A stretch of 64,000 nucleotides of DNA from Escherichia coli (GTDB lineage: Bacteria; Pseudomonadota; Gammaproteobacteria; Enterobacterales; Enterobacteriaceae), in NCBI RefSeq assembly GCF_030013595.1, contig NZ_CP122768.1; one strand, 5' to 3'. The position numbers and the translations under genes were made by a program. Below the pieces are notes generated by a model, which was not told the DNA's origin, ran no database searches, and worked only from the letters and a program-made list of their open reading frames with translations. This document shows positions 20,007 through 40,964 of the stretch, piece after piece (position 1 is the stretch's first letter; the number at the start of each line of letters is the position of its first letter).

Positions 20007-20015
20007 TTTCATTGA

Positions 20016-20050
20016 CAGCCACATCATGATGACCGTGGCTGTTAGTTTTT
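20016..20050 (+). terminator. Rho-independent terminator after lsrK
   Basis: CAGCCAC...GTGGCTG stem followed by TTAGTTTTT, immediately after the lsrK stop. Confidence 0.6.
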
Positions 20051-25955: not shown

Positions 25956-25964
25956 ACCGTATAA

Positions 25965-25997
25965 GCCGCATGTCGAAGATGCATGCGGCTTAATATT
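25965..25997 (+). terminator. Rho-independent terminator after the autotransporter gene
   Basis: GCCGCATG-N9-CATGCGGC hairpin followed by TTAATATT, 10 nt after the stop. Confidence 0.65.
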
Positions 25998-26030
25998 GCC
26001 GACTTCAAACGACTTTTAAATCCTCCTTTT

Positions 26031-26144
26031 TATCCGCGATCGCGGATATCACAGTGTTTATCCCGTAGAGCGGATAAGATGTGTTTCCAGATTGACTTTA
26101 TCCTCACTAAAGGATAAAACTGATAATATCCCCTTGAGCGGATA
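26031..26144. promoter_or_regulatory. hipBA promoter/operator region with four HipB operator palindromes
   Basis: Four TATCC-N8-GGATA sites at 26031-26048, 26059-26076, 26099-26116 and 26127-26144, matching the known HipB operator consensus. Confidence 0.85.
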
Positions 26145-26165
26145 AATTTGCTGTGGACGTATGAC

Positions 26166-26432
26166 ATGATGAGCTTTCAGAAGATCTATAGCCCAACGCA
26201 ATTAGCGAATGCAATGAAACTGGTTCGTCAGCAAAATGGCTGGACGCAGAGCGAGCTGGCGAAAAAAATTGGTATTAAGCAGGCGACGATTTCCAATTTC
26301 GAAAACAACCCTGACAATACCACGCTGACGACCTTTTTTAAGATTTTACAGTCGCTTGAACTCTCAATGACGCTATGCGACGCGAAAAATGCCTCGCCAG
26401 AATCAACAGAACAGCAAGATCTGGAGTGGTAA
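26166..26432 (+). CDS. hipB: Antitoxin/repressor HipB (88 aa, XRE-type HTH)
   Basis: MMSFQKIYSPTQLANAMKLVRQQNGWTQSELAKKIGIKQATISNFENNPDN...; the ORF track starts at an upstream TTG, the true start is the ATG at 26166. Confidence 0.9.
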   Translation: MMSFQKIYSPTQLANAMKLVRQQNGWTQSELAKKIGIKQATISNFENNPDNTTLTTFFKILQSLELSMTLCDAKNASPESTEQQDLEW

Positions 26433-27242
26433 TGCCTAAACTTGTCACTTGGATGAACAACCAGCGGGTAGGCGAGTTAACGAAGTTAGCCAACGGCGCG
26501 CACACCTTTAAGTATGCACCGGAGTGGTTAGCCAGCCGTTATGCCAGACCGTTGTCACTTTCGCTGCCATTGCAGAGGGGGAATATCACCTCTGATGCCG
26601 TATTTAACTTCTTCGATAACCTGTTACCCGATAGCCCGATTGTACGTGACCGGATCGTTAAACGTTATCATGCCAAATCCAGACAACCGTTTGATTTATT
26701 GTCAGAAATAGGGCGAGACAGCGTTGGTGCCGTGACGTTAATACCCGAAGACGAAACCGTAACGCATCCGATAATGGCATGGGAAAAGCTTACTGAAGCC
26801 AGACTTGAAGAAGTATTAACGGCTTATAAAGCAGATATCCCTCTGGGCATGATTAGAGAAGAAAATGACTTTTATTCAGGCTGGCGGCAGTTATCGACTC
26901 ACGCCATTTTACGACATCATTTCAGCATTTCCGGTATTGGGTGGCGCAGGAATACACATCAGCGATCTCAAACTGGCAATGGGGCTTAACGCATCCAAAG
27001 GCAAAAAAACGGCAATCGATAAAATTTATCCGCGACATTTTCTGGCGACAGCAAAGTTGCTGAAATTTCCGGAAGTGCAGATGCATGAAATCCTGAGTGA
27101 CTTTGCCAGAATGATTCCGGCAGCACTGGATAACGTGAAGACTTCATTACCGACAGATTTTCCGGAGAACGTGGTGACGGCAGTTGAAACCAATGTGTTG
27201 AGGTTGCACCGTCGGTTAAGCCGAGAATACGGTATTAAGTAA
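26432..27242 (+). pseudogene. hipA: hipA toxin kinase gene with an internal out-of-frame deletion (about 0.5 kb missing)
   Basis: N-terminal 150 residues (MPKLVTWMNNQRVGELTK...GMIREENDF) then the frame breaks near 26870-26878; the C-terminal 125 residues (FIQAGGSYRLTPFYDIISAF...LSREYGIK) continue in a different frame. Locus is 811 bp versus about 1323 bp for intact hipA. Confidence 0.8.
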
Positions 27243-27461
27243 GATATGGGGTTTGGCCGTTGTTAATGAGCAGGACAATCATGACCGCCAACGACTGGAT
27301 TCTCCCTTGGTTTATGTTGGTGCGCATAATGTATATTATGTTAAATAGCCTACGATGGTAAACAACTTCATAAATCTCCATTGCCTTTCACGAAATCAAC
27401 AGGTTAACGATTTCTAACATCCCTCCCATTTCTTGCGTTAGGTGTAGAGTACATTTACTTC

Positions 27462-28280
27462 ATGTCCGCATCAACAATGAGGTTATCTATGTACTCGCTC
27501 AACCAACTAGTTGCCATCAACCACAAACGGCAATGGATTCTGATGGACACGGAAACCTGCTTACCGTTGTTGTACCCACTCAGATATCACATCGATCATT
27601 TGGCTTTTCGTTCATTGTCCACGCAGTCTGCTTCGCTGCAGGCCGTTAAGTTCTTTTACGAATTTTGGTTGCAGAAACACGGCGTCACGTTTTGCTATAG
27701 CTTCTATGCTTCTGGCCACAACCCGTGCATTGCTATTGAGGAAATGTCGGCATTTTCTCACTATCTGGAGAATGGTCGCGTAAGCCAATCAAATTTATTG
27801 GCATTCACTCCAGTCTCCACTTCCCATAGTTTTATCAACGCAGCGCGATTTCGTGCAGTAGCGCAGTTTATTGCTTTTTTGATTAACACGTATGTATCGC
27901 CGGTATATCGGGATGATTCTCCCAAAGCATTATCACTCCAGGCTTCCCGGTTACATACTCGCCTGCGCTTTTGTCGTGACAGTTATCGAGCGTTAACACC
28001 GGGAAAGCATTCTAACCATCGTCATATCCATCAGGGGTTTCAGAGTATGAACCGTGAAATGGTGATCAGTCTGTACACGATTATTGCTCCCTGCTCTAGC
28101 CAAAAATATAACCCATTAAATCCCTTCCCCACCAGAAACACCCAGTTTCGCAACTTTTTGATTATTCGCCTGTTACTGAATTATGGATTGCGAATAGGTG
28201 AATTATTGCTGTTGGAATGCAATTCTATAAAATCAAATATAAAAAAGGATAAGTTTAGTTTGATTGTAACTACAACTTGA
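27462..28280 (+). CDS. Tyrosine recombinase, N-terminal part (Tn554 TnpA-like / GInt integrase 1); probably disrupted
   Basis: 272-aa ORF ending shortly after a box-I-like segment (FLIIRLLLNYGLRIGELLLLECNSI); the catalytic C-terminal motifs are in the next ORF. Confidence 0.55.
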   Translation: MSASTMRLSMYSLNQLVAINHKRQWILMDTETCLPLLYPLRYHIDHLAFRSLSTQSASLQAVKFFYEFWLQKHGVTFCYSFYASGHNPCIAIEEMSAFSHYLENGRVSQSNLLAFTPVSTSHSFINAARFRAVAQFIAFLINTYVSPVYRDDSPKALSLQASRLHTRLRFCRDSYRALTPGKHSNHRHIHQGFQSMNREMVISLYTIIAPCSSQKYNPLNPFPTRNTQFRNFLIIRLLLNYGLRIGELLLLECNSIKSNIKKDKFSLIVTTT

Positions 28281-28305
28281 ATTTAGTCACTCTGCACCGT
28301 TTTAT

Positions 28306-28947
28306 GTGTCCAGGTCGATTAACCAGGTCATCCTTAGTTTCAGTCCGCCAGATTATCAGGCCGCCGTAGCGCGTGGCGAAGCGGCTCTACCAATTATTAC
28401 GCCGACCGACTTGCGCCACAACGTGGGGCACTCACTGGCTATGCAAGGGGTCAGCGCCGAGGAAATCGCGCATATTCTGGGACATACCTCCCTTACTGTT
28501 GCCAAGTATTACATTTTGGCGACACCTGCGCTGGCACTGATTCGAGCCAAAGCGTTGGGTACCAATCCGGTATGGCAAAATATGGTAGCTATGATGTTGA
28601 CTGGTGAACTGACCTCTTCAACGAAATGGCAAGGCCAGCGCGTGGTCGGCATAATCGGTGATCAGTTGCATGATGGGATTGGTGGTTGCTCCAGAGATAA
28701 TGGCGACTGCCCGTTCAGTGAAGTACGCTGCTGCTACGGCTGCCTGTATTATCGCCCCTTTACTGATGGTGACCATCAGGCTGTGCTGGAGAGTGTAGTT
28801 AAAGAAGTCGATGAATTGATCTCCATTTCAGACAGTGTTGGTAACGCCCGCAATCCACTTATTTCCATCCATGAAACCACACAATTTGAAATTCAATCCG
28901 TGATTGCCCGTTGCCGCTTTCGTCAGGAAAAAGGCGGTGTGCGATGA
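28306..28947 (+). CDS. Tyrosine recombinase, C-terminal part (catalytic box II); continuation of the previous ORF
   Basis: Contains DLRHNVGHSLAMQGVSAEEIAHILGHTSLTVAKYY (R-H...H...Y catalytic signature). Separated from the upstream ORF by about 25 nt with a stop; the R-to-HxxR spacing looks shorter than usual. Confidence 0.55.
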   Translation: MSRSINQVILSFSPPDYQAAVARGEAALPIITPTDLRHNVGHSLAMQGVSAEEIAHILGHTSLTVAKYYILATPALALIRAKALGTNPVWQNMVAMMLTGELTSSTKWQGQRVVGIIGDQLHDGIGGCSRDNGDCPFSEVRCCYGCLYYRPFTDGDHQAVLESVVKEVDELISISDSVGNARNPLISIHETTQFEIQSVIARCRFRQEKGGVR

Positions 28948-31310
28948 AAAAATATTTTGCGCAGTTTCACGCCTTTATCACCGAGCAGCAAAGCTGGTTT
29001 GAACAGCATCTGGCGACAGACTTCGAGCAGTCATGGGATGATCCTGTCTGGGTCTGCGGCAGCAATGGTAGTGGCTGGTTACGTGGTAATGGCAAAAATA
29101 AATTACGCTTTGATGAAATCAGCCGTACCAAAGGTATTGAGGGGCGCCATGCAGTGGCAGAAGACTATGCCCGGTTTATGAAAGCCCTGCTGGTACTAGT
29201 GTATCGGAGGCGAAATCGTAGCATATCCCCAGCGGTGGCTGTGGCAACGCTGATGATTTTGAAGCGCTGGTACCACTCGCTATTTGAGATGACCGGGCAA
29301 ACTCACCCAGTGTATCTAACCACCGGGGTAATTCAACGGTCAATGGATAGCCTCAGCGCAGCTTCGTCTCCAGGGGATCCCAATACCGCCAATTACAAAG
29401 GACGCTGTGTCAGTCTGCAAAAAATGGTTAATCACCAGTCATTCACGCTGGTGACACTGCAATATGTGTCTGATGCACAATATACCAATCAAACCAACCT
29501 GACCCGCAAAGCCCGGGAAACCATGGCTCTGAAACAGCAGGACAAGCTGACAGATACCACTACCGATGGTGAAGAGGCGTTGATTACCATTCGCGGTTTT
29601 CTGAACATCGTCGAATTAATCCAGCGGGTGGAAAGTGATGCTGAGAAAATTGCGTTAAATTGCCTGTTGTTATTGGTTATCACCGGCTTTCGCTCCATTG
29701 AAGCGTTTAATCTCAGACAGGATGCGCTGTTTAAACGCCAGATTGATGATCCGGCAATCCGCAAGCGGTTTCAGGACAAGGGATTACCCGATTATTTCCT
29801 TGGTATCCGTTATATTGGTGTCAAAGGTGCTGGGGAGCGAACGCATTGGGTAGAACCGCTGGCTGTACCGCTGGTCGAGAGTATATTCAGTTCCGTTAAA
29901 ATATTGACCGCACCAAAACGCAGTCATCTGACCTATCTACGGGAGAAATCTTTTACTGATTACCTGCCACAGGCCATCAGCGCCCTACCCGGTGAACAAG
30001 TTGAACTGGATGATGTGGTGACGTACATCACACAAACCGCCTCAAGTTTTCGTGGCCGGGCAGGACAACGAGACAAAACATCCAAAGCCCTCAACAAACG
30101 AGGTGTGCTGCCCGTTCTAGAAATGCCAGGGCCGAAAAACAGCAAATCTATCTATTATTCCAAGACTGACCTTAATCATTACATCAAGACCGAATTTGGC
30201 CTGACGGATGCCAACGAACCCTGTACGCACGCCTGGATGGAAAATGGCAAACGTTACGAAGTTAACTACGAAGACCTGTTATTTCTACATGAGAAGGGTT
30301 CGCTGGCATTAAAGCGCACACTGGCTTTGCTGGCTATACCGATACCATTCACTAACACACTTATGAATAAATTTTTAGGCAATGTTGAGCCTGATGGATC
30401 AGTATTCAGCAAATATCAATTACTGGAAGAGAATGGTACCCCCACCCGGATGCGTACCCACATTCCCCGGCACAACATCAATACCTTTCTTGCTATTGCG
30501 GATATCTCTGACCACTTACAGGCAATGTTGATGGGGCGAGTGGACATCACGCAGAATCAGCACTATCAACATCTGGCGCTTGCAGAACGGCGAAAAGCAG
30601 CCTCGTTGGTGCCCTTGCAGCCGATATCGACAGCACTAACTGCCGCGCCCTCTTCGTCCTCCATTGCTACGCCACTGGAAATCGTCAAACGGACCGGCCA
30701 ACTGGCGGTCACGAAACACATGACTTTGGACAATACCATCAAAGCCAACCTGCATACTTTTGACGATCGGGATGATGTAGCCAGGTTTGTCGAGGCGTCA
30801 TTTGCTGACGGCCTCTTTGAAGATGTTGCTGCCGCCTTTGAAGAAATCCGCGACGCAGAAGGACCAGAGCAAGCCTCTGCCATGGTGGCAAGACATGCCG
30901 TGATGTATCCGCTGAAATTTGGCTCCTGTATGCGGGAAGTTAACCTCTGGGGATGTCCTTATCGACTGAAATGCCAGAGTGCTGCCTTTTGTGAACATTT
31001 CACGCTGACAGGCCGGATAGATGAGCTACCCAATCTGATTGCCAAAAAACAGGCGTTACAGCAAGCACATTCGAAGTTGACCCAACTTACACAACATCAG
31101 CCTGACTACCAGACCAGACTGGCCGACATCGAACGACGGTTACAGCAACTCGAGGCAATACAAGCACAATGGCAGCGTCGTGCCAAGACTCAACAACTGG
31201 TTGCTGCGGAGAGTGTGTTGTCTGGTGGAGTAATCACCGAGGGCAAAGTCCGTACACTGGCCCAGCTTTTTGCACTTGAATACCAACAATTGATGCAGGA
31301 GAACGACTGA
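28944..31310 (+). CDS. Large tyrosine recombinase (Tn554 TnpB-like / GInt integrase 2), about 788 aa
   Basis: Box I-like LLLLVITGFRSIEAFNLRQD and box II-like THIPRHNINTFLAIADISDHLQAMLMGRVDITQNQHYQHL; ATG at 28944 overlaps the upstream stop (ATGA), suggesting translational coupling. Confidence 0.65.
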   Translation: MKKYFAQFHAFITEQQSWFEQHLATDFEQSWDDPVWVCGSNGSGWLRGNGKNKLRFDEISRTKGIEGRHAVAEDYARFMKALLVLVYRRRNRSISPAVAVATLMILKRWYHSLFEMTGQTHPVYLTTGVIQRSMDSLSAASSPGDPNTANYKGRCVSLQKMVNHQSFTLVTLQYVSDAQYTNQTNLTRKARETMALKQQDKLTDTTTDGEEALITIRGFLNIVELIQRVESDAEKIALNCLLLLVITGFRSIEAFNLRQDALFKRQIDDPAIRKRFQDKGLPDYFLGIRYIGVKGAGERTHWVEPLAVPLVESIFSSVKILTAPKRSHLTYLREKSFTDYLPQAISALPGEQVELDDVVTYITQTASSFRGRAGQRDKTSKALNKRGVLPVLEMPGPKNSKSIYYSKTDLNHYIKTEFGLTDANEPCTHAWMENGKRYEVNYEDLLFLHEKGSLALKRTLALLAIPIPFTNTLMNKFLGNVEPDGSVFSKYQLLEENGTPTRMRTHIPRHNINTFLAIADISDHLQAMLMGRVDITQNQHYQHLALAERRKAASLVPLQPISTALTAAPSSSSIATPLEIVKRTGQLAVTKHMTLDNTIKANLHTFDDRDDVARFVEASFADGLFEDVAAAFEEIRDAEGPEQASAMVARHAVMYPLKFGSCMREVNLWGCPYRLKCQSAAFCEHFTLTGRIDELPNLIAKKQALQQAHSKLTQLTQHQPDYQTRLADIERRLQQLEAIQAQWQRRAKTQQLVAAESVLSGGVITEGKVRTLAQLFALEYQQLMQEND

Positions 31311-31744
31311 TGCGCGGCAAGGAACTGGACACACTGATCGAGCACGAATTACAACTGATGCTGGTTGAAGGCTTTGACAAGTCCCCTATTTCCGCCAAGG
31401 CCCTGCATATTCGGCTCAAGGCAAAAGGTATCGTTAACGGTGGTTTAAGTACGCTGAGCAGCCTTGAGCGAAAACGCCTAATTGCTGCCTATGTTGATCA
31501 GCAACTTGGCCCATTGAATCTACGCCCAAAAGAAAAACAGCAATACGTCAACCGCAAAACCCGTCAGGCCTTGCTGGCCAGAAACCAGCAGTTGCAGGCG
31601 GAAGTCAGTGAGCTGCGAGACCAACTGGCGCAGAATACCCTGTCGTTGATAGAAATTGTCAAAGCGGTAAAAATCAATACAGTTATTCCGGTGGAAAGTC
31701 TGTTGGCTAAACATGTAATTCGGGAGTTACACAAGTCGTTATAA
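31310..31744 (+). CDS. Small coiled-coil protein (Tn554 TnpC-like / GInt accessory protein)
   Basis: 144-aa ORF whose ATG overlaps the upstream stop (TGATG); predicted coiled-coil (QQLQAEVSELRDQLAQNTLSL). Third gene of a recombinase-recombinase-small protein module. Confidence 0.5.
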   Translation: MRGKELDTLIEHELQLMLVEGFDKSPISAKALHIRLKAKGIVNGGLSTLSSLERKRLIAAYVDQQLGPLNLRPKEKQQYVNRKTRQALLARNQQLQAEVSELRDQLAQNTLSLIEIVKAVKINTVIPVESLLAKHVIRELHKSL

Positions 31745-31908
31745 TGCTGACATAGGAATATTTCGCCGACAGTTTCCCGGTTGTCGGCGAAATGCTGATT
31801 GTAATTTTTCGGCAAAGGGCATGGACGATTTCTTTTCGTTATTCTGCATATTGCTTACCTTCCCAAATTTCTCCAACCGTTAGTTGGAGAAATTAGATGG
31901 GTCGTAAA

Positions 31909-32103
31909 TCATGAATAAACGCCTTGATCTATTCGAAAAATGAGAATTGCAACTTTCAACGCCCCCTCTTCTGAGTCCATTATCTCAGAGGACGCTTTCC
32001 ACTGTAATGCTCTGTTTGGTTCATTGCACCAGTTTAATGCTGCACTTTCGTTACCTTCAAAAAGATCAATAGCCTTTTGTATAACATCATTTTTTGTCAG
32101 CAT
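31909..32103 (-). CDS. DUF2384-like (Xre/MbcA/ParS antitoxin toxin-binding domain) fragment, likely the frameshifted C-terminus of the upstream XRE protein
   Basis: ...AALNWCNEPNRALQWKASSEIMDSEEGALKVAILIFRIDQGVYS resembles the DUF2384 C-terminal signature; overlaps the XRE ORF by 17 nt across an A6 tract (T6 at 32090-32095 on the + strand). Confidence 0.45.
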   Translation of the reverse strand: MLTKNDVIQKAIDLFEGNESAALNWCNEPNRALQWKASSEIMDSEEGALKVAILIFRIDQGVYS

Positions 32104-32419
32104 GTTTTACACCTGAAGACGTTTTGAGTGCTTCGATAAGGCTACTTCGCTCTTCCTCTGTCATCCGAGATATGAGTAATGCAAGTTCTGCTGTTGTCTG
32201 ATCATCACAAAAAAGGTAGTTCAACGGCACGTTTAACTCTGCTGCCATCCGTCGAAGCGTATCAATATCGGGGACATGGCGTCCTTTCTCATAATGATTC
32301 ATACGACTGCTAGCCGATGCAGGATCAAAGCCAACAAGGAGACCCAGAGAGCGCTGTGATAAACCAGCCCTGCATCTCGCTTCCTTAAGTCGTTCTGGTA
32401 TCGGATTTTTTTCAGACAC
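32087..32419 (-). CDS. XRE-family HTH DNA-binding protein (110 aa)
   Basis: HTH signature LKEARCRAGLSQRSLGLLVGFDPASASSRMNHYEKGRHVPDIDTLRRMAAELNV. Confidence 0.7.
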   Translation of the reverse strand: MSEKNPIPERLKEARCRAGLSQRSLGLLVGFDPASASSRMNHYEKGRHVPDIDTLRRMAAELNVPLNYLFCDDQTTAELALLISRMTEEERSSLIEALKTSSGVKHADKK

Positions 32420-32503
32420 TGATTCATCTTCATTGGCCTCGAATGCTTAGATTGTCTAAGTATCTGCCATTGTTGTATACTTAGCAATCCTAAGTTAATA
32501 GCC

Positions 32504-33076
32504 TTGTTTTGTCATATGAATAGCCGAGTAACCAACCCTGAGTCGTACATATTTTCTGCAATCATCTTAATTGGCAAAGATAACTTCACCAGTAACGAAG
32601 TAGCAAAAATTCTTATCGAGCGATTTTCACTTCCGAAAAATTATTTAAAGGCAAAAGCTTTTGCTTATAACCAAATTCAATCCCTGGTTAGAAAAGGATT
32701 ATTAAACAAAGTAAGAAAAACAGGCGTGTATCAATATTTATACTCAGTCACAGCAGAATTCAATGTCGCAATAGAGTGCGTGAAATTAATTGAGGCAACC
32801 CCAAAGTCTTCCTGTCAACTTGTTTCAAGTGCTACCAACCATGAACACAGAAATGTAAATATCCAAATAAAGTCTCTTATTGAAAAATACAGCAGTGAAT
32901 TGGCGAAAGTATCAGGAGCAAAGGAGATTTATGAGGAATTGATAGTTGCTGTGCCGAGCAGGGAAAATGAATTCAGGAAGCTTTCTCTTGAACAAGAGAA
33001 AAAACACATCAAGATAAATGAAAAAATAAATACATTAATTGGAATTATTAATCAATCTCTTGCAGTAAGGCAATGA
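32504..33076 (+). CDS. Hypothetical protein (190 aa), AT-rich, divergent from the XRE gene
   Basis: Open frame only; lysine-rich with a possible N-terminal winged-helix-like segment and C-terminal coiled coil. No family recognised. Confidence 0.5.
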   Translation: MFCHMNSRVTNPESYIFSAIILIGKDNFTSNEVAKILIERFSLPKNYLKAKAFAYNQIQSLVRKGLLNKVRKTGVYQYLYSVTAEFNVAIECVKLIEATPKSSCQLVSSATNHEHRNVNIQIKSLIEKYSSELAKVSGAKEIYEELIVAVPSRENEFRKLSLEQEKKHIKINEKINTLIGIINQSLAVRQ

Positions 33077-33891
33077 ATTTTAGCAAGTATTTGAAGCTAA
33101 ATGGAGTCATGAAAAAGAGAGGGCAAAGCCGAACTCCGCCCTCTCCCGTCAAGCACTGATATATCTCATTAAAATGAGATTAACAGCGCGCACTCCTATA
33201 TGCTAGTCGTATATAAATATAATGTCAGCCAGTCCCGGATGCAACTCTTTAATGAAGTTCAGTACTCTCTTTTTTTAGTTATCGAAATGATAGTTGGTAC
33301 AAGGGAACACACGAAGAGGAAAATTGCGATGACTTTGACGCAGAGCATGTTGAGTCTATTATTGCGACCCTCGAAGCTCTGGATGCGTTAGATTTACGCC
33401 ACGGAAGATGGACTGTAAGTATCCCTCCAATAGTGCGACTCACTTACCCAGATTGTAAGTTCAAACGGTCGAAGGCACTAGATTCTGATAAGAATTTGAG
33501 GCGCATGAGTACAGGCATTCGATTGTCAGCTTCTGGGTAGTTGTGGGAATTCTGCTCAAAGTGCCGCTGGCCAAAACATATTGGGCGCTGGTCTGTGGCG
33601 GCAAAATGGTGTCACGTAAAAGATACAGATGTTCCAGTCTATTTTTGCCCAATAACGTGCCCCGGGTTCAGTTTTTTTGCTCGGGACTAAAACGCTTATC
33701 CAGATCAGCCGCCAGCTGTTCAATACTCTTCGTTGAGCCTTTATAAATATACCAATCAAACTGTTAAAAACTCGTTCAAATTCGACCAAATATTATTACT
33801 GGCTGATATTAGTTCGGTTAGGCAAAGCGCAACAAACAACTAAGAAGTGCGCCTCAAAAAATTAATTGTAAGGCGCCCCCCTAAAACACAT

Positions 33892-36219
33892 TTATTCTGT
33901 TATATTTCTTGGCAACATAGAAAAAGATGCTTGAGACAATCCTGCGCGCTTGAATTTATACCGTATATATGTTGACACTTCCATCTCATGGTTTGACAAC
34001 AAAATCTGACGATCTGAAAGCTCTACCCGTAACAAATCACTCAATGAAGCAATGTTAATCTCATCCATTGACTGTACTGGATCATCAATCAGTATAAATG
34101 GATTAAGCGCATATACCCTATTCAATGTTAGGAAAAATGCCAAACCTAATGATGCGATTTGCCCACTACTCATAGACAGGATTGCATCATGATCAGACTT
34201 CAGCGCAGTATTGAATTTGAGTATATCTCCTTTACCGCTCACTATAAACAAACCTAACCCACGCTGATAATTCTGTATGAGTCTTCCACTATATATATGG
34301 AATAACAGCTCTATATCACCAATAGTCTTTTTCGCATACTGTTTCGCAGTGTCGTCCAATTGCCGCCTAAGATTAACAATTTTTGCTTTTATTTTTTTGC
34401 CAGCTTCAATCCTAGAACTGAGCTTATCAAGCTCCGCTACTTTGGACTTGTACTCTTCGCTTTTGAATTTAGAATGAGCGGCTCTGAGATAGGATTCTTT
34501 ATTTTCAAAATCTGAAACACTAAGTGAGGTTATATCTGATGCGTTCAAGAAAGCCATCTCTAAGCTAGATGACCAGTCTAAAGGGAGCACATCCTTTTCT
34601 GGTTTTTTAGCTGTAGCAATAATCCCTTTTGCTTCATTAAACCGTAACAGCAGAGCTGCATCATCAGCCGTAAAACTAAGATCTTTTGATACGCCATAAT
34701 TTACCAACTGCAAAGCCACTTCACTTATGATTGAGAACTTAGATTCTGCTGCTGTGAGAGCCTTAAAAAGCACACTATCGAAATCTTTTGCAACTAGGTC
34801 ACGCTGCTGTGTGAATGCTGTTATCTGTAAATTTAGTAAGTCCTGTATTGACCTTACTGTCTCCTCCAACTTCTGGGCAGAAGCATCTATTTCAGATCGA
34901 ATTCTTTCCGCATTATTTACAGCGGCTTCCTCTAACGCAGCGTAAGTCGCCCATGATAACCCACAGAATGGACAACCGGAAATTTCCAAATCTTCACATT
35001 CTTGGTGTCGCCGCAGCAACTCTGCATGAGCATTTAGTAAATTTACAAGCTTTGCGTTCTTAGCTGCACTATCAGATTTAATTAGATCCCGTGCCTCAAT
35101 GAGACTATTTACACCAACCAAATCAGCAGCGTTCTTAAGACCGTTTAGGTCTACTTCATTTATCTCTGAAGCTGGCTTTCTGAATATCAAAAGATCATGA
35201 TCCAGCCCAACTAGCGTTGACTCCTTTACTTTCAGACCTTCATATCCAGCTACTTCAGAACCCAACTGAAGAGCCAACTTTATATCGACCTCTCTTTTTA
35301 AAAACGCATCAATATTACTATTAGCCTTTCTCGTCAGAACTTCATCAAAGTTCTGATATATTCTAAATATATTCCGTAATTCACGTATCAGAGTTTCAAT
35401 ATCTGTATCATTTACAGCCGATAGAGGCTGTTCAACATCCCAACCAGGTGACGGCGTCGCGGTACTTAACCGCTTGAAGTCAACGGAATTCTCGGCATCT
35501 TGAAACTGACCACTAAGCTGTTTAATTTTTTCATTCAACTCAGCCTGGAGGTCAGTATGCACTTTCCCCGTATAAGATTCCGTAATAATACTTTCTAACT
35601 CGGAGCAATATGATATCTGTCTCGTCAATTTATCGGTATTAATAAGATGCTCAATGCCTTTTTTTCTTTCAGTGGCATCCGTCGAGTACAGGTATCTATT
35701 CTGCCCTTGCTCAAGATAGTTCAATAAAGAGAAATTTTTTAAGAAGTTCTCTCCTAGAATACTCTCTAGTGCTTTAGAATCAAGACTCTCTCCAAACTTA
35801 TCGGAGTCTATACTGCTTATTTCGTAAAGCTTAAAAATAGAGAAGTTATCAGGTGCATTATTATCCGGGTTCGATAAATCCGCTATGGTAGCAACACGAG
35901 CTAGGAAAATTGACTCTCCTGAATCTTGATTTATGAGCTCAGCTCTAATAGCGATGTCGCCCTCTTTATTTCTATTCCAGTATATGTTTTCTTCAAATTG
36001 TTTTTTGCGCGAACGTTTTGCAACTGTTGCATCATTTGTATTGATAATTCTTTGTATAACGCCAGTAAACAAAAGCTCCAACGCATCAAATATGCTAGTT
36101 TTTCCAAAACCATTGGGGCCATCCAAGGTAATCATGGAGGCAGATCGAAAATCAATAGATGTATTTTCAAATGGCTTGAAATTTTCAATCTTGAGGCTGG
36201 ATATTTTCCATTTCTTCAT
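33892..36219 (-). CDS. Rad50/SbcC/SMC-like ABC ATPase with coiled-coil insert and CxxC zinc-hook-like motif (LmuB-like), 775 aa
   Basis: N-terminal Walker A (IENFKPFENTSIDF...LDGPNGFGKTSIFDALELLF), central CPFCG motif in a predicted coiled coil, C-terminal signature/Walker B/H-loop (SSGQIASLG...FILIDDPVQSMD...LLSNHE). Confidence 0.65.
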   Translation of the reverse strand: MKKWKISSLKIENFKPFENTSIDFRSASMITLDGPNGFGKTSIFDALELLFTGVIQRIINTNDATVAKRSRKKQFEENIYWNRNKEGDIAIRAELINQDSGESIFLARVATIADLSNPDNNAPDNFSIFKLYEISSIDSDKFGESLDSKALESILGENFLKNFSLLNYLEQGQNRYLYSTDATERKKGIEHLINTDKLTRQISYCSELESIITESYTGKVHTDLQAELNEKIKQLSGQFQDAENSVDFKRLSTATPSPGWDVEQPLSAVNDTDIETLIRELRNIFRIYQNFDEVLTRKANSNIDAFLKREVDIKLALQLGSEVAGYEGLKVKESTLVGLDHDLLIFRKPASEINEVDLNGLKNAADLVGVNSLIEARDLIKSDSAAKNAKLVNLLNAHAELLRRHQECEDLEISGCPFCGLSWATYAALEEAAVNNAERIRSEIDASAQKLEETVRSIQDLLNLQITAFTQQRDLVAKDFDSVLFKALTAAESKFSIISEVALQLVNYGVSKDLSFTADDAALLLRFNEAKGIIATAKKPEKDVLPLDWSSSLEMAFLNASDITSLSVSDFENKESYLRAAHSKFKSEEYKSKVAELDKLSSRIEAGKKIKAKIVNLRRQLDDTAKQYAKKTIGDIELLFHIYSGRLIQNYQRGLGLFIVSGKGDILKFNTALKSDHDAILSMSSGQIASLGLAFFLTLNRVYALNPFILIDDPVQSMDEINIASLSDLLRVELSDRQILLSNHEMEVSTYIRYKFKRAGLSQASFSMLPRNITE

Positions 36220-36940
36220 GAATCAGAGTCTCGATTAGTTTGTCTGCTTCAATCCCAGATGCAGAAGCATTAAAGATTTTGAGATGAAGACCGGTCAATT
36301 TTTTCTCGGCGAGTGCTTCCTTTACATAAATATCAAGCGGCTTTAGTGAGCTTTCCTTAACAGGAACCTTTACAAATGGAAGCTTTATAAAAATTCTCGC
36401 CGCGACGCTATATAATGTAGGCGATAGTGGTTGATCTCGATATTCTGCAAACATCCTATCATCGACAACAATCGCTGAAACGCTTTCGAAGTTGTGCCCT
36501 TCTAACAACCTAAGCTCTTCCTCGCTGTAATAAAGAAAATATTTTTTAAAATAATATGGATTCTCTTCAATTCCAAACACCTTACTCTCAATTCCATTAA
36601 AATCAACTCGGTGCCTTAATTTATGCAAAATAATCAGATCGGTATTTTTATCGAAAGCAGGATCAGATTTGAATGTTTCAGGAGCATACAGTAACACTAA
36701 TTTATTCAGCACCTGCGGTGATGGTATATTTTCACACTCAACCACAGCGAGGAATCGCTTCCTATCTCCACTATCCTGACTAAAATAAGTCAAAGACTTA
36801 TAATCAACACCTTCAAGACCAGCTAAAGTTTCTCCTGCCGAATACTCTATGGTGACGTCATCTGCTTTAGAATAGTCGCCTGTATTAAACAAAGTAAACT
36901 CATGTTTCAAGGCAGCCTGTAGAACAATATCTTTAATCAT
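36185..36940 (-). CDS. Middle gene of the three-gene operon (251 aa), unknown function, possibly LmuC-like
   Basis: Start overlaps the upstream stop by 8 nt and its 3' end overlaps the downstream ATPase start, indicating translational coupling. No recognisable motif. Confidence 0.5.
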   Translation of the reverse strand: MIKDIVLQAALKHEFTLFNTGDYSKADDVTIEYSAGETLAGLEGVDYKSLTYFSQDSGDRKRFLAVVECENIPSPQVLNKLVLLYAPETFKSDPAFDKNTDLIILHKLRHRVDFNGIESKVFGIEENPYYFKKYFLYYSEEELRLLEGHNFESVSAIVVDDRMFAEYRDQPLSPTLYSVAARIFIKLPFVKVPVKESSLKPLDIYVKEALAEKKLTGLHLKIFNASASGIEADKLIETLIHEEMENIQPQD

Positions 36941-38195
36941 TCAACTTCACCCTCGCCTCTTCCTTTGAAATTATTTTTGCATCAAAGGCTTTAGTTATTT
37001 TGTTACGATCCTTACCCATCAATGAAAACTCATCTTCTACAGCATCCCGCGAAGCTCCGGTAGCTGCACAAAATCGCTCAGCGGGTGAAAAAATATTTGC
37101 TCTAGCTGCGATTAGCCATTGATATTCAACTAAGATATCTATCAGCTCTGGATCGCTTTTCAGCTGCTCTATTAGATCTTCAGCAAACCTATGCTCCCGT
37201 CGAGCATTGTCTGCCGAAATTGCTGTTGGCAAATAAAAATCTCCGGCAGAGCACCTATAGTAAGGAGGCTTTTGCTCACTCAGTGGCGCTTTATCTATAT
37301 CGTAGATCACATCCACATAATCATAAACACTGTTCTCACTCACGACCATTGTGGAAGATCCAAAACATAACGACTTCCACAACCATATAAATGGAGTATC
37401 ACCCAACTCTTTAATCTGATCGTAAACATTTGCAACTTTTTGAATAACAGTTCTATCTGCTGTTTTTTCCATTGTATTGGTATACCCATACAATGATTTA
37501 CAAACGGCCATCCTGGCTTGGAACATTTTGTATACAATGTCGTCTTCATGGGTAGCGGTGAGGCTTAATAACTCTACAATCTTCTCACTTTTTAAAGTTT
37601 GAGTAAACGCGGCTTGTGCGGCGCTCATTAACCCATCCTGATTGCACGCGTGTATATATATTACTTGAGCGGCAATATGACTCTGCAAAGCCTCGAACTT
37701 CAAATTCACTAAAAAATCACTGCAAGGTAACTCTTCGGAAACCAGGTACTTCTCAATTTTTGATTTCGTTTTTTCTTCAACATCTTGGAGATAGCAGTAA
37801 GGCAGTCCATCGTAAGTATAAAATTTAACGACATTCCCATTGCTGCCAACAAAATCAGAAGCATCATCAAGGCGCGCAGATGTATGAAAATATCTTTTGG
37901 TAGTCTTATCACACAACATATATGTAGATGCAGCTTTTTCGAGAGCCTCCCTATAGGCAGCTCTTTTATCATCTGCTAGCGCTTTTACCTGATGCGTAGA
38001 AACTGCAACTCCATTTTCAATTATCGAAAAATCATCAATGCTGTCGATTTGCAACTCAAACGACATTTTATTGAGCACACATTCTATGGAATGATAAAGC
38101 GCTAAATGCCCTTGATAAATAAACCCACTCCATGTAGGTGCAGCTGTATGAGGATGGGAGGAAGCCGATTTCGACATGCAATATGTCCTAGGCAA
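36933..38195 (-). CDS. Candidate effector of a three-gene defense operon: PD-(D/E)xK nuclease-like protein (possibly Cap4/DUF4297-like, LmuA-like), 420 aa
   Basis: N-terminal region WSGFIYQGHLALYHSIECV...QIDSIDDFSIIENGVAVSTHQVK has the E..D..E/QxK spacing of restriction-endonuclease-fold proteins; first gene of an overlapping operon; AT-rich. Confidence 0.5.
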   Translation of the reverse strand: MPRTYCMSKSASSHPHTAAPTWSGFIYQGHLALYHSIECVLNKMSFELQIDSIDDFSIIENGVAVSTHQVKALADDKRAAYREALEKAASTYMLCDKTTKRYFHTSARLDDASDFVGSNGNVVKFYTYDGLPYCYLQDVEEKTKSKIEKYLVSEELPCSDFLVNLKFEALQSHIAAQVIYIHACNQDGLMSAAQAAFTQTLKSEKIVELLSLTATHEDDIVYKMFQARMAVCKSLYGYTNTMEKTADRTVIQKVANVYDQIKELGDTPFIWLWKSLCFGSSTMVVSENSVYDYVDVIYDIDKAPLSEQKPPYYRCSAGDFYLPTAISADNARREHRFAEDLIEQLKSDPELIDILVEYQWLIAARANIFSPAERFCAATGASRDAVEDEFSLMGKDRNKITKAFDAKIISKEEARVKLND

Positions 38196-38524
38196 ATTTA
38201 GAGACAGAGTCAGAAGTAACCTTCTAACTCAGTAGAATATGATCTTAATTTCTGTATCCGATGTTTATATTTTTTGTTGAACGCGCCCAGCGGCGTTATG
38301 AAAACTTCCTTGATTGTCATTTTTATGCATTCTCTTGATCGATAGGAATTTAAATCCCAAAAAGATTAAAAAAACACCCAAAAACGGATGTTTATTCGAC
38401 ACTGCCTGCGTGCCATGAGTGCACCGCCATCAATTAAATGGATCTTATCGAGTGATACTGTATATCACTGATGGTTTTTTACTCCATTCCCCTGAAAATG
38501 GACGCAACTTCCCCGATGCGGCTC

Positions 38525-39757
38525 TCAGCCGCACACCCGCTGTTGCGCCAGTGGCTCATGCATCAGGACCAGCTCTGTCAGACGGTAGCCCCGCTTCAGC
38601 CCCGTAAAACGCATCTGACATCCGCACAGGATGCACTTTAGCGGGTCAACCTTCAGTAACCGCTGATACATCCCTCTCCACCTGATTTGCATCGCCGTCT
38701 TTCTCACCGTCTCCGTTATGACGTACACAACATCTTCCAGTAACCGGCGCTTTACCGGACTCAGGAAACCGTAGTACCTCACCATACGGAACCCCTTATC
38801 CGCCACATGCCAGGAGAACCTTTCCATAAACTCATCACCACTCATCACCAGGTATTCTTCCCGTTTTGTCCGGTGACTGTTGTAACGCAGACCAATTTCA
38901 TCCTGACCAGCATAGTGCTCCAGACGGCTCATCGGCACCGGCGGTTTTTTCAGGTAAGAGCCGAAGTACACCGCCACATGTGTGGCGTTATCCATCACCC
39001 GGGATACGTTGACATTCCAGCCCCGCCGGTAATGACTGTCCAGGAAGCGATTCCAGTCCCGTCTGCTGCTTCCTTCAACTGCCAGCGCATCCGGTATCAC
39101 CAGCTCCGGGTATTTTCGTGACAGTAACCACGTTATCCTGTAACGCCACATGCTCATCACCTTACGGGCGTAAAAATGAAGGTTTTTCCAGGTGTGGTCT
39201 GGTGTCACGCCGCCGGCCGTTGTCGACAGGTGAATGTGCGGATGCCACTGCTGGTCACGTCCCCATGTGTGGATGACCGTGAATATCCCCGGCACCACAT
39301 CTGCCTGGCGGCAGATTTCCTGTATCACATCCGCAGCAATGCGGCTCATCTCTGCCAGTAACCACCGGTTGTGGAACACCAGGGACCAGTACTGGCAGGG
39401 AAGTGTGAACACAATATGCTGCCACGGACAGTCGGGAACCAGACTCAGCAGATACTGTATCCACTGTGCGCCAGCCTTCACTCCGCAGTGCGGGCAGGAG
39501 CGACTTTTACACCGGAAGCAGACCTTTTTTGTGTGGCAACAGTCCGGAGATGAACAGCACCACTGTGTGTACCCCATCAGCGTGGTTCCGCACGCCATGA
39601 TTTTTGTCACCGACTCAATGACTACCGGACGCACTGAACCTTCCGGTTGTTTCTCCAGCCAGTTAAGCCAGCGGTTTCCCTGCTGAAAAATGTCGGCAAA
39701 ACGGGGAAGCATCAGAAGGGCGGGGGGACTCCGTCCGGCCAGTGAACCGTGCCACAC
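38525..39757 (-). CDS. tnpA: IS91-family transposase (HUH rolling-circle type)
   Basis: 410-aa ORF with N-terminal Cys-rich zinc-binding region (CHTKKVCFRCKSRSCPHCG) and HUH-like motif HTWGRDQQWHPHIH. Confidence 0.7.
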   Translation of the reverse strand: MWHGSLAGRSPPALLMLPRFADIFQQGNRWLNWLEKQPEGSVRPVVIESVTKIMACGTTLMGYTQWCCSSPDCCHTKKVCFRCKSRSCPHCGVKAGAQWIQYLLSLVPDCPWQHIVFTLPCQYWSLVFHNRWLLAEMSRIAADVIQEICRQADVVPGIFTVIHTWGRDQQWHPHIHLSTTAGGVTPDHTWKNLHFYARKVMSMWRYRITWLLSRKYPELVIPDALAVEGSSRRDWNRFLDSHYRRGWNVNVSRVMDNATHVAVYFGSYLKKPPVPMSRLEHYAGQDEIGLRYNSHRTKREEYLVMSGDEFMERFSWHVADKGFRMVRYYGFLSPVKRRLLEDVVYVITETVRKTAMQIRWRGMYQRLLKVDPLKCILCGCQMRFTGLKRGYRLTELVLMHEPLAQQRVCG

Positions 39758-40077
39758 TCCGGGCAGTACATGCCGCCGGCGCTGATACCGGCAAGAATGG
39801 TCGCAAACTCCCGCTCCGTGCAGCGGGCTATTTCAGGATACCCTTCGTCATCGACACGAACAAACCAGAAGACCAGCTTTTTGTTTCCGGCATCCACAAA
39901 GAAGGGAATATTCAGGTCTGCGCAGCACTCAACGGCATCGTCAAAATTATCAAAGCGCAGAGCTTCTGCGTCTTCTTCGTCAAAGAAGTCATCGTCGTGA
40001 AGCTTCACGACATAGCGGGGAAGTTTGCTTCTTTGAGGGGCAGGTTTTCGTTTACGGGGTTTAGCTGAACGGGACAT
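39712..40077 (-). CDS. IS91 ORF121-like accessory protein
   Basis: 121-aa ORF immediately upstream of and overlapping the transposase gene, the size and position of IS91 orf121. Confidence 0.5.
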   Translation of the reverse strand: MSRSAKPRKRKPAPQRSKLPRYVVKLHDDDFFDEEDAEALRFDNFDDAVECCADLNIPFFVDAGNKKLVFWFVRVDDEGYPEIARCTEREFATILAGISAGGMYCPECGTVHWPDGVPPPF

Positions 40078-40964
40078 ATAACTACCTGAAAGACAATGAT
40101 ATTGTCTGTTTTTATAACGGTAATTTCAGGCCATGACAAGCCGCAGCCGCCAAGCTGCCTACTCGAGCGATATCGCTATGATATCACCGAATGTAACATA
40201 CCTGTAGGGTCAAAAAAAGGGTCAGCCAAACATTCTGGAGTGTTCGGTATCGTTGGTACCATTCATGCAAAATGGACTTAAATCTTAAGAAAGACACTCC
40301 ATTAGCTTAAGCTTCCCTACCTTACCCTACCAATACACCTAGCCAGCCGTGAGAACGCTACCGCCATCAGAGGCATTAGTCCCGATTAAGTATCGATGCA
40401 ACCAAATGTTACCAAAATTCATGAATTGTTCAAGAAGGCAATCAGATAATCCCTAAAGCTTTATGGGCCTGGTTATGCGATTACATTGGGAAATGGTTCA
40501 TGAACAGAAGTAGAGCAAGCTGCCAAGAAATGCTCATAAGAGGCGAATTTCCTGTTAGTTCATGAAGCCACCTGGAAGTGAATTCATCTTTCTATTAAAA
40601 ATATTCATTTAAAGCAAAGAGATATGTCATCTGTGGTTTATGAACTGGATTCTCGCTCAACATAAGTTAAATGTGGTGGGTTTGTTCTTAAGTTCATGTG
40701 TTCCGCTCTTTCAGTAGCTTAACTGATGAATCAGTCAGCAGCTCTTGCCGTGCAAGCTACGCGGCGGTTCGTACCAGATTGGCCACCTCCATCTCCTGGT
40801 TCGCTTTCCCCTCCCCCCGGTAAACCTCACCCAACGTTAATTAATGATGTCAGTATGTGGGCGCTATCCTTGTATGTAAAATCCACTGACGATTATGCCC
40901 ATCTGTGAAAAAAACTCACAATGCCATTCGATGCATCTCCATACTGAACGAGGCGTTATCGTCT

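Follow-up and report, generated by a model that had tools for sequence, protein, structure and literature searches.

A gene located at the junction between the mobility genes and the defence cargo of a genomic island in Escherichia coli probably codes for a small, basic transcription regulator that binds DNA, belongs to the VspR family and makes up one half of a portable cassette of two regulators; we put the probability of this reading at roughly 0.72. The analyzed stretch of DNA, referred to below as the window, is 64,000 nucleotides long, and the open reading frame (ORF) under study can be read from two starts within it:

32516..33076, plus strand: VspR-family gene, 186 aa (ORF listing, PGAP coding sequence, homologues, dN/dS and AF2 model)
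32504..33076, plus strand: the same ORF from the alternative TTG start, 190 aa

The ATG at 32516 is most likely the true start and is favoured over the TTG at 32504, because a RefSeq coding sequence of 561 nt (WP_064226057.1) is annotated in near-identical and identical DNA and the MN(S/N)R encoded at the ATG is the N-terminus of nearly all homologues. By the usual sequence criteria the ORF is a real gene, since full-length homologues with 48–97% identity occur across Enterobacterales and the dN/dS values against four orthologues (0.12–0.27) indicate purifying selection. The preliminary description of this region was thus right to propose a gene, although the 190-aa extent that it gave is replaced here by the 186-aa one. 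Its account of the ORF as lysine-rich and low in GC is borne out by 19 Lys among the 186 residues and a GC content of 34.4%; the predicted pI is 9.5. A prophage origin was considered and dropped, as the phage collection searched holds no homologue.

The same description assigned the protein to no recognizable family, which is correct for the libraries that we scanned but not for its more remote relationships. Searches with the protein returned only noise from Pfam-A, NCBIfam, PHROGs, PADLOC and PDB sequences (the last also by profile), and the PadR model (PF03551) gave no sequence match in Pfam; the Pfam-A copy used, in which the ORF gave nothing at E<=1, is one without the VspR_N (PF27213) and VspR_C (PF27192) models. 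Followed through intermediate sequences, the ORF protein most likely belongs to the VspR family (Pfam VspR_N/VspR_C) as a diverged, remote member. A phmmer search against 1.8 billion representatives recovered only 35 clusters, and the most distant full-length matches among them (P0115, P0117 and P0118) carry precomputed VspR_N and VspR_C assignments; VspR_N is also precomputed on an 80%-identical relative of the ORF and VspR_C on a 41%-identical one. An HMM built from Enterobacterial sequences only gave 41–48 bits for the intermediates and 17.6 bits for VspR of Vibrio cholerae (E 1.4e-7 in a single comparison), and it matched 71 Vibrio-type proteins at E<1e-3. Alignment of the ORF subfamily with the VspR subfamily by hhalign gave a probability of 72% (E 3.4e-5) over 150 colinear columns. 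In direct pairwise comparison the ORF protein and V. cholerae VspR share about 23% identity (BLASTP E 0.001), a remote similarity, so that the case for a common family is built on the intermediates and on synteny. Where papers on E. coli or Klebsiella use the name "VSPR", the very-short-patch-repair system of PADLOC is meant, which is unrelated to this family.

Structure prediction, which had been suggested in the preliminary description, yielded an AF2 model (pLDDT 83) with a winged helix at residues ~8-87, a disordered linker at ~98-110 and a C-terminal antiparallel helical hairpin at 109-184. The top PDB matches of this model in Foldseek were PadR, VanR, BC1756 and AphA (E 1e-4 to 3e-3, probability 0.98-1.0). 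The model of V. cholerae VspR has its elements in the same order, with a low-confidence N-terminal half, and the two models share an architecture of winged helix, linker and C-terminal two-helix hairpin within about 170–200 aa. Proteins of the PadR two-domain subfamily (PadR of B. subtilis, VanR, BC1756 and AphA of V. cholerae) are of similar size and combine a winged helix with a C-terminal helical dimerisation domain; as far as the models tell, the resemblance of the ORF protein to PadR is at the level of fold only, and its predicted hairpin most likely mediates dimerisation. Enzymatic, catalytic and sensor domains were absent from both the Pfam results and the AF2 model. The best conserved residues across subfamilies are those of the recognition helix (A46, Y51, Q53 and L57), and a specific DNA contact is therefore suggested.

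The neighbouring genes point in the same direction. The preliminary description placed the ORF divergently from a single XRE/DUF2384 regulator; the orientation was confirmed, while the regulator proved to be two separate ORFs:

32087..32419, minus strand: XRE gene, 110 aa, controller protein of the C.Csp231I class (Pfam HTH_19/HTH_3, PADLOC, PDB and VSP-1 matches)
31909..32103, minus strand: DUF2384-only ORF, 64 aa (Pfam PF09722, 1.3e-7; NCBIfam NF049845, 1.7e-12, below the cut-off)

The XRE protein matches the PADLOC "control protein" model (3e-25) and C.Csp231I in the PDB (3lfp, E 7e-23), and it is 59% identical (E 1e-43) to the XRE protein encoded beside vspR in the V. cholerae island VSP-1. 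The DUF2384 ORF, which overlaps the XRE stop by 17 nt, corresponds to the C-terminal toxin-binding domain of MbcA/ParS/Xre proteins. No RES toxin gene was found near it. Some islands carry it intact, but in others it has decayed while the VspR-like ORF stays intact, and it is missing from the Vibrio loci; a 57-aa ORF that follows the VSP-1 XRE gene was considered as its counterpart and rejected, the similarity being nil.

The two divergent regulator genes are separated by 96 bp, counted from the preferred ATG, or by 84 bp when the TTG is used, nearly the 85 bp given in the preliminary description. The following elements were recognized in this spacer:

32420..32515, no strand: shared divergent control region (nine-locus alignment; inverted repeats)
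32446..32460, no strand: C-box O1, CTTAGATTGTCTAAG, XRE-proximal candidate site
32480..32494, no strand: C-box O2, CTTAGCAATCCTAAG, ORF-proximal candidate site
32452..32481, plus strand: promoter-like site of the ORF, with -35 TTGTCT (32452-32457), an 18-nt spacer and -10 TATACT (32476-32481)
32459..32487, minus strand: promoter-like site of the XRE gene, with -35 TTGCTA (32487-32482), a 17-nt spacer and -10 GATACT (32464-32459)

Across nine aligned loci, which range from E. coli to VSP-1 of V. cholerae, the core of the control region (about 32446-32494) does not vary. O1 and O2 have the form CTTAG-N5-CTAAG, lie 19 bp apart and are the sole exact matches to this pattern in the 64 kb. The ORF promoter scored 9/12 in a consensus scan, and its -10 falls within the invariant TGTATACT block; the hexamers of the XRE promoter were read from the sequence, and both occupy conserved columns of the alignment. 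The consensus scan also proposed another minus-strand promoter at 32515-32487, which is less conserved. Read in this way, O1 covers the -35 of the ORF promoter together with the predicted XRE start site (near 32452, minus strand), and O2 covers the -35 of the XRE promoter together with the predicted ORF start site (near 32488, plus strand). The claim that the ORF is under the divergent XRE regulator is thus very probably correct.

C.Csp231I recognizes CTAAG-N5-CTTAG twice, about 18 bp apart (PMC3115060), and O1 and O2 match this published site in sequence and spacing. Homologous Xre proteins bind such sites in Tn7-like elements, as determined by EMSA (Petassi et al. 2020 preprint). The locus therefore contains what characterizes a C-protein unit, namely an adjacent C-protein homologue and two CTWAG-N5-CTWAG boxes about 18 bp apart that overlap a promoter, and the XRE protein is predicted to bind O1 and O2. 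The likeness to the C.Csp231I/C.EcoO109I class (motif 8 of Sorokin) is that of the XRE partner, not of the ORF: the two 15-bp palindromes about 18-19 bp apart upstream are common to both, but the class controls restriction and methylase genes, whereas no restriction-modification genes were found in the island and the controlled gene here is divergent and encodes a DNA-binding protein. In addition, the central bases of the two half-sites have changed places in E. coli, giving CTTAG..CTAAG, while the arrangement CTAAG..CTTAG is retained in V. cholerae. A scan of the window revealed no third C-box at the Lamassu or gin promoters of the island, and the aligned upstream regions of ginA contained no convincing shared motif or palindrome. 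The promoter positions, the pairing of proteins with sites, the repression and its targets are all inferred.

The host of the cassette is a GInt, with the following parts:

27347..40672, plus strand: GInt, integrated 3' of hipA (site unoccupied in K-12-like strains; a Klebsiella plasmid carries an intact copy)
27462-28947, within the GInt: ginA'/ginB' remnants, fused by a 1473-bp deletion
28944-31310, within the GInt: ginC
31310-31744, within the GInt: ginD
33077..33409, no strand: conserved non-coding tail of the module (from the limits of conservation)
about 33117-33147: hairpin, predicted terminator of leftward transcription (compensatory changes; minus-strand U-run)
33163-33180, no strand: second hairpin or palindrome (from folding)
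33892-38195, minus strand: Lamassu genes lmuB/C/A (PADLOC)
38345-40161, within the GInt: IS91-family insertion

Both ends were defined from the intact copy on the Klebsiella plasmid; a search for attR with the K-12 empty-site sequence found none, and the right end was taken from the plasmid copy. GInts are defined by four co-transcribed genes, ginABCD (PMC5385486), and the ORF lies outside this core operon, after ginD and beyond the converging XRE gene, with a promoter region of its own. Like the defence-carrying GInts of the Tn6571 family in E. coli (Bardaji 2017; Hochhauser 2023), the element has ginABCD, imperfect direct end repeats and defence cargo; the XRE/VspR-like cassette is mentioned in neither of these reports, and the position immediately after ginD, where Bardaji et al. 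let the cargo start, is that of the conserved cassette here. Between the gin proteins of the window and the recombinase sets of VSP-1 and of two further loci (L009 and L011), no similarity could be detected. The tail has folding z-scores of -5.5 and -6.3. Other islands have a 98-aa HTH gene behind the ORF, of which a search of this island found no remnant. Cargo and ORF are convergent in the window as well as in CBASS- and retron-bearing islands, and in the window the terminator stands between the two; control of the cargo by read-through is therefore excluded.

Distribution across genomes shows that the ORF belongs to a portable regulatory module and not to the Lamassu cargo, because the cassette remains linked across loci while the cargo varies. 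A scan for the operator pattern identified 117 loci in the genomes of gammaproteobacterial species; an XRE gene was present in 113/113 of those with enough flank and a VspR-family ORF in 107/110; the 12 loci reached by way of the protein all have a divergent XRE gene as well. The operator and the genes of the XRE protein and the VspR-family protein are thus in strict three-way linkage. In GInts, SE-like elements and Tn7-like transposons alike, the cassette lies where the mobility genes meet the cargo: it directly follows ginD in every Enterobacterial GInt sampled, and in other genera it directly follows SE-like recombinase sets or tnsABC, with TnsC immediately left of the XRE gene in 29/81 operator-scan loci. 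In Enterobacterales the adjacent cargo may be Lamassu, as here, CBASS, retron/AbiV, a helicase or others. The preliminary description located the ORF inside AT-rich cargo; the DNA is AT-rich (GC 34% in the ORF and 39% in Lamassu), but it is not variable cargo, as islands with different cargo share the block 31906-33409 at 96-97% identity, even where the adjoining gin genes are only 67-75% identical. Of complete E. coli genomes, about 5% carry the ORF, which is also found on large conjugative plasmids of Klebsiella, E. coli, Salmonella and Enterobacter.

The closest studied counterpart is VspR (VC0177) of VSP-1, which resembles the ORF protein in length (187 vs 186 aa) and predicted order of elements; the two loci also share the divergent XRE partner and the invariant operator/promoter core, and both are housed in small integrative islands that combine a multi-recombinase module with cargo for defence. 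They differ in that the proteins are only about 23% identical, that the CBASS operon lies co-directionally downstream of vspR whereas Lamassu is convergent with the ORF, and that the E. coli branch adds the DUF2384 ORF. In V. cholerae, according to papers that cite the original VspR study, VspR negatively regulates the CBASS operon of VSP-1 and gives a ChIP signal within the CBASS locus; they also state that loss of vspR left a CBASS-dependent phenotype unchanged, that its regulation "may be more complex" and that vspR is under control of the TarB sRNA, a control with no known counterpart here. By analogy with VspR, the ORF product is probably a DNA-binding repressor, the level of which would be set by the C protein.

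On this basis the following scheme can be proposed. The ORF and the XRE gene would be read from overlapping back-to-back promoters that share the C-boxes, and the C protein would control both its own level and the expression of the ORF through O1 and O2, because each box sits on one -35 and on the start site of the other promoter. When the island enters a new cell, which contains no C protein, both promoters would be free; as the C protein builds up, it would occupy the boxes and throttle both promoters, much as restriction-modification systems and I-F3b CRISPR-transposons follow a logic of "zygotic induction". The ORF protein would then repress island DNA and, if it acts as VspR does on the neighbouring CBASS operon, would probably keep costly cargo (here Lamassu), the xre promoter or both at a low level. 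In the I-F3b CRISPR Tn7-like transposons (Petassi et al. 2020 preprint), a C.Csp231I-like Xre of ~100 aa is likewise encoded between tnsABC and the cargo/targeting genes and binds two C.Csp231I-like motifs in its own promoter by EMSA, and zygotic induction was proposed; however, the operon controlled there is tniQ-cas and a VspR-like gene is not mentioned, whereas here control would fall on the VspR-like ORF, within a tyrosine-recombinase GInt.

Several other roles for the ORF were weighed. A variant of the regulator reading, differing in the mode of binding, would make the protein a generic island-encoded silencer, a coiled-coil oligomer that coats AT-rich island DNA with low specificity and damps any cargo. 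The ORF protein is 97-100% identical beside unrelated cargo, and a cargo-specific operator is therefore unlikely; its basic character amid AT-rich cargo, the long predicted hairpin that could oligomerise, the rapid evolution of the family (median identity 24% vs 58% for the XRE partner) and the ChIP signal reported for VspR agree with such a role. Since PadR-like proteins are normally sequence-specific dimers and the conserved recognition helix speaks for specific contact, we regard the silencer as unlikely, yet ahead of the remaining alternatives. Many directionality factors are winged-helix proteins, and the placement of the cassette behind ginD, SE-like recombinase sets or tnsABC would suit an accessory factor that binds ends or recombinases and biases excision versus integration. 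Against this, the family accompanies mobility systems of unrelated mechanism (sets of tyrosine recombinases as well as Tn7-like transposases of the DDE type), the VspR gene of VSP-1 stands apart from the recombinase genes there, the ORF keeps 97% identity next to strongly diverged gin genes, and a minimal GInt needs no more than ginABCD and its ends to integrate and excise (PMC5385486); a recombination role is accordingly improbable.

The role put forward in the preliminary description, an additional defence or accessory component, here one working with the Lamassu operon, now appears very improbable. The ORF does adjoin a defence system in a defence-carrying island, and PADLOC gave a weak match to the N-terminal wHTH of AbiEi (E 0.0036). 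However, PADLOC assigns LmuB, LmuC and LmuA to the three neighbours and nothing to the ORF, which lacks a catalytic domain, has a regulator-type fold and stands beside CBASS, retron/AbiV, helicase and other cargo as well; the Lamassu operon occurs in only 14/264 E. coli genomes that carry the block. Homology to a known mobile-element gene, which the preliminary description had named as evidence against its own proposal, was found in VspR of VSP-1. The DUF2384 toxin-binding domain encoded beside the XRE gene raises the further idea that the ORF is the toxin of a RES-Xre or ParST/MbcTA type pair with XRE/DUF2384 as antitoxin, and RES toxins are similar to the ORF in length. This is the least credible of the four: the ORF has no RES or other toxin domain and its predicted fold is a winged helix with a hairpin, it lies on the opposite strand instead of downstream of the antitoxin in one operon, and it remains intact where DUF2384 is absent (Vibrio) or decayed (several Enterobacterial loci).

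The preferred reading thus makes the ORF a regulator and not a new defence gene, in a family with a member that has been studied before, and it turns a "hypothetical protein" of E. coli genomes and enterobacterial plasmids into a testable regulator. For V. cholerae, this placement suggests that vspR and its XRE neighbour would constitute a controller-protein switch of the restriction-modification type, which offers a concrete explanation for the inconsistent-looking regulation of CBASS by VspR. Found at the mobility/cargo junction of three unrelated island classes, the cassette is a marker for defence-carrying islands and a candidate control point for switching on horizontally acquired defence systems. 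More tentatively, and with doubt outweighing confidence, the cassette may be an "establishment switch" shared by three kinds of small, non-conjugative integrative elements of Gammaproteobacteria that differ in mechanism, namely GInts, SE-like elements including VSP-1, and Tn7-like transposons, in which the invariant C-protein/operator half would time expression on entry and the fast-evolving VspR half would silence dangerous cargo or mobility genes until the element has settled. If so, VspR of V. cholerae would be under the control of the C protein VC0176, and in E. coli the ORF would govern Lamassu expression or the movement of the island.

The ORF of the preliminary description, a 190-aa protein at 32504-33076 (+), is present in the window, whose DNA is from E. 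coli. That model starts at TTG; the 186-aa model from ATG 32516 is better because nearly all homologues begin with MN(S/N)R at this position, and the RefSeq CDS WP_064226057.1, annotated on the same DNA of other strains and plasmids, also covers 561 nt from ATG 32516. The description of the gene as lysine-rich and low in GC was correct (19 Lys, 34.4% GC), and the protein is basic (pI 9.5). Full-length homologues with 48-97% identity occur in Escherichia, Salmonella, Citrobacter, Enterobacter, Klebsiella, Raoultella, Pectobacterium and other genera, and dN/dS against four orthologues is 0.12-0.27; by this spread and constraint the ORF is clearly a genuine gene.

Library scans (Pfam-A, NCBIfam, PHROGs, PADLOC) and PDB sequence searches returned nothing significant for the protein, and an exhaustive phmmer search of 1.8 billion representatives matched just 35 clusters. 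Nevertheless, the initial statement that no family could be recognized is superseded, as remote-homology search places the ORF as a diverged member of the VspR family, named after the regulator of the Vibrio cholerae VSP-1 island. Precomputed Pfam annotations assign both VspR_N and VspR_C to the most distant full-length phmmer matches (23-27% identity) and to additional distant full-length relatives from marine Gammaproteobacteria found by profile search; VspR_N is also assigned to one protein 80% identical to the ORF product, and VspR_C to one 41% identical. When a Vibrio member was used as the query, the protein that NCBI names “transcriptional regulator VspR [Vibrio cholerae]” was among the hits. 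Compared directly with V. cholerae VspR, the ORF product shows weak but consistent similarity: 23% identity by BLASTP (E 0.001), and 72% probability (E 3.4e-5) over 150 colinear columns in a profile-profile alignment of the two subfamilies. An HMM built from enterobacterial members only scores V. cholerae VspR at 17.6 bits and intermediates at 41-48 bits, and matches 71 independently found Vibrio-type proteins. The AF2 model of V. cholerae VspR, of low confidence in its N-terminal half, has the same element order as the ORF model.

The strongest evidence for the VspR placement is provided by the partner gene and the control region, listed below with the other features of the island.

Features of the island in window coordinates
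27462-28947, ginA/ginB remnants (Pfam on intact copies), fused through loss of 1473 bp, as judged against the intact plasmid copy; breakpoint 28277
28944-31310, ginC
31310-31744, ginD
31909-32103 (-), DUF2384 ORF, 64 aa, separate from the XRE gene, with a 17-nt overlap
32087-32419 (-), XRE gene, HTH_19/HTH_3 protein, 110 aa
32446-32460, box O1, 15-bp palindrome CTTAGATTGTCTAAG in the invariant core
32480-32494, box O2, 15-bp palindrome CTTAGCAATCCTAAG in the invariant core
38345-40161, IS91-family element (transposase 38525-39757, NCBIfam 1.7e-85), separating the Lamassu operon from the right-hand GInt tail

A divergent XRE neighbor is indeed present, separated from the ORF by 96 bp, but the proposed XRE/DUF2384 regulator is not a single protein, the DUF2384 domain being encoded by a separate ORF. 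In VSP-1, vspR is likewise divergent from an XRE gene, there encoding 102 aa, whose product is 59% identical to that of the window (E 1e-43). By sequence, the XRE protein is closely homologous to C.Csp231I, a controller (C) protein of a restriction-modification system (PDB 3lfp, E 7e-23; PADLOC “control protein”, 3e-25), for which the published site is CTAAG-N5-CTTAG in two copies about 18 bp apart (PMC3115060), corresponding to Sorokin motif 8. The intergenic core containing O1 and O2, which lie 19 bp apart, is invariant across nine aligned loci from E. coli to Photobacterium and V. cholerae, in which the VspR proteins have diverged to about 22% identity. The V. cholerae boxes have the exact C.Csp231I form, whereas in E. 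coli the middle base of each half-site is swapped. Exact matches to the O1/O2 pattern in the 64-kb window are limited to O1 and O2, and the exact-pattern search found no further C-box in the island. A consensus scan predicts a rightward promoter with its -35 element within O1 and its -10 element abutting O2. Inspection of the minus strand by eye suggests a mirror-image leftward promoter with -35 within O2 and -10 at the edge of O1; O1 would then overlie the rightward -35 element and the leftward start site, and O2 the reverse combination. The DUF2384 ORF encodes a toxin-binding domain and is an orphan coupled to the XRE gene, no RES toxin being found in the island; some islands keep it intact, others have a truncated or frameshifted version, and in Pectobacterium DUF2384 is encoded downstream of the VspR-like gene instead. 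Its product might bind one of the two regulators.

The host element occupies the site directly after hipA, which is empty in K-12-like strains (junction 27346/27347). Comparison with the same element carrying intact genes on a conjugative Klebsiella pneumoniae plasmid sets its right end at 40672, and its ends are the imperfect repeats TTATGTTAAAT and ATAAGTTAAAT. It is organized as a GInt, an island type with two tyrosine recombinases, a third recombinase-like protein and a small coiled-coil protein (Bardaji et al., PMC5385486). As ginA and ginB are fused by the deletion, also found in strain HCP5S3_I2, this copy should be unable to move by itself. The three-gene operon of its cargo is Lamassu (PADLOC: LmuB 7e-69, LmuC 3e-14, LmuA 7e-21), and defense-carrying GInts in E. 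coli have already been described (Hochhauser et al.). Neither the HCP5S3_I2 copy of this island nor that on the Klebsiella plasmid contains the IS91-family element. Outside the island, hipA has an internal 510-bp deletion at 26871-26872 relative to K-12 and the otherwise near-identical HCP5S3_I2, leaving two ORF fragments. An ECSE_1600-family (Ag43-like) autotransporter gene (20488-25955) is split into two ORFs by the loss of one base compared with HCP5S3_I2; the deletion lies within 23513-26872, presumably close to where the two ORFs meet (about 24555), and is either a real frameshift or a sequencing error.

The ORF, previously placed inside the AT-rich cargo, belongs to the island backbone. 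The block 31906-33409 is 96-97% identical in other islands with different cargo after it, such as an ATPase and an AlbA-domain gene in one island, or a DEAD-box helicase on one plasmid, where the gin genes are 67-75% identical to those of the window. Diverged copies of the ORF (82-84% protein identity) are located beside type II CBASS, at a chromosomal hipA site and on a Klebsiella plasmid, and another beside AbiV and a retron. In all these islands the block immediately follows ginD. The ORF protein occurs on 64 plasmids, most of them conjugative, and no phage record encodes it. On plasmid p99COLEC-1 the regulatory block is 97% identical to that of the window and the gin genes 67-75%, a disparity implying that the cassette of XRE gene, operator and VspR-family gene would have been exchanged between island backbones by recombination.

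This distribution also argues against the suggestion of an additional defense or accessory component acting with the three-gene operon: only 14 of the 264 E. coli genomes with the XRE gene and ORF (among 5426 complete genomes) run on into Lamassu, and the PADLOC result is likewise against it, so that this role was rejected. A toxin paired with an XRE/DUF2384 antitoxin was also rejected, as the ORF has neither a RES nor another toxin domain, its fold and strand are wrong, and DUF2384 is absent or decayed in many loci. An accessory role in recombination is unlikely, since the mobility systems found with the VspR family are unrelated to one another and ginABCD suffice for a functional minimal GInt (Bardaji et al., PMC5385486).

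Under the preferred reading, a VspR-family regulator, the C protein would occupy O1 and O2 and thereby regulate both the XRE gene and the ORF. Such binding is suggested by homology to a protein whose DNA complex has been solved, by the identical site architecture and by published EMSA data, and to this extent the proposed control of the ORF by its divergent neighbor is retained. The EMSA data concern a homologue, the ~100-aa Xre of type I-F3b CRISPR-associated Tn7-like transposons, which binds such motifs and for which an expression burst upon entering a new host was proposed (Petassi et al. 2020 preprint). The ORF product would be a dimeric winged-helix repressor, judging from its predicted fold and from VspR, which is documented to regulate the adjacent CBASS operon negatively and for which a ChIP signal in the CBASS locus was reported. 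In the window the cargo and the ORF are transcribed towards each other, with a strong terminator in between (hairpin ~33117-33147, supported by compensatory changes when compared with a distant homologue and followed on the minus strand by a U-run), which rules out control of the cargo by read-through from the ORF. Given this arrangement, the lack of any further C-box in the exact-pattern search and the identical ORF copies found with different cargo, the candidate target is either the cassette itself, through mutual repression with the xre promoter (a toggle), or sites recognized with low specificity in a silencer-like mode. The tail at 33077-33409 is conserved and non-coding, with two hairpins that fold strongly (z -5.5 and -6.3); in the first, compensatory changes maintain the stem, and it reads as a terminator of leftward transcription. 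A conserved block with a perfect TATAAT (~33217-33222) sits where other islands have a downstream 98-aa HTH gene.

The operator/promoter pattern was scanned in one genome for each of 100,044 species, yielding 117 loci. Of the 80 records listed, a single 2-kb MAG contig bears another label, Flavobacteriaceae, and the rest are Gammaproteobacteria; among the genera represented are Vibrio, Photobacterium, Aliivibrio, Enterovibrio, Shewanella, Marinomonas, Moritella, Neiella, Pantoea, Pectobacterium, Enterobacter and Citrobacter. The operator itself was the selection criterion for this set. Wherever the flank suffices, an XRE homologue is encoded on the left (113/113 loci, E<1e-10), and in 107/110 the right ORF, which starts ~27 nt past the pattern, is a VspR-family protein of 171-199 aa; conversely, an XRE partner is present at each of the 12 loci found via the protein. 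Conservation is much stronger on the XRE side, where median identity to the window protein is 58%, against 24% for the VspR proteins. Left of the XRE gene and pointing towards it are three kinds of mobility modules: gin genes of GInts (Enterobacter, Citrobacter, Pectobacterium), other sets of three recombinases plus a small protein (an Enterobacter locus, L009, a Photobacterium locus, L011, and others), and TnsA/TnsB/TnsC of Tn7-like transposons (Pfam), with TnsC adjacent in 29/81 loci. Directly after the VspR gene, with overlapping stop and start codons, 68 of the 81 species-representative loci encode a ~460-aa SF2 helicase (ResIII and Helicase_C, with weak PADLOC PbeA matches; for example, 8453-9832 in L039 and 8767-10152 in L116), which is absent from the window and VSP-1; the VspR gene and helicase together may be what the cassette ancestrally looked like, or may form a separate unit. 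At the far end of VSP-1 (16097-20564 of locus L013), four genes encode 143, 703, 562 and at least 314 aa and resemble a recombinase set of the GInt/SE style that includes a small coiled-coil protein; the 703-aa product has a match in protein three of the L009 set (1e-26), but Pfam integrase signals are weak or absent.

In a limited literature search, so that they may be published elsewhere, we did not find descriptions of vspR and its XRE neighbor as a C-protein switch, of the conservation of the cassette from VSP-1 to E. coli GInts, or of the cassette as a mark of the mobility/cargo junction in three unrelated kinds of islands. The ORF itself adds a diverged protein to an established regulator family, and its partner belongs to a class of controller proteins that is also known.
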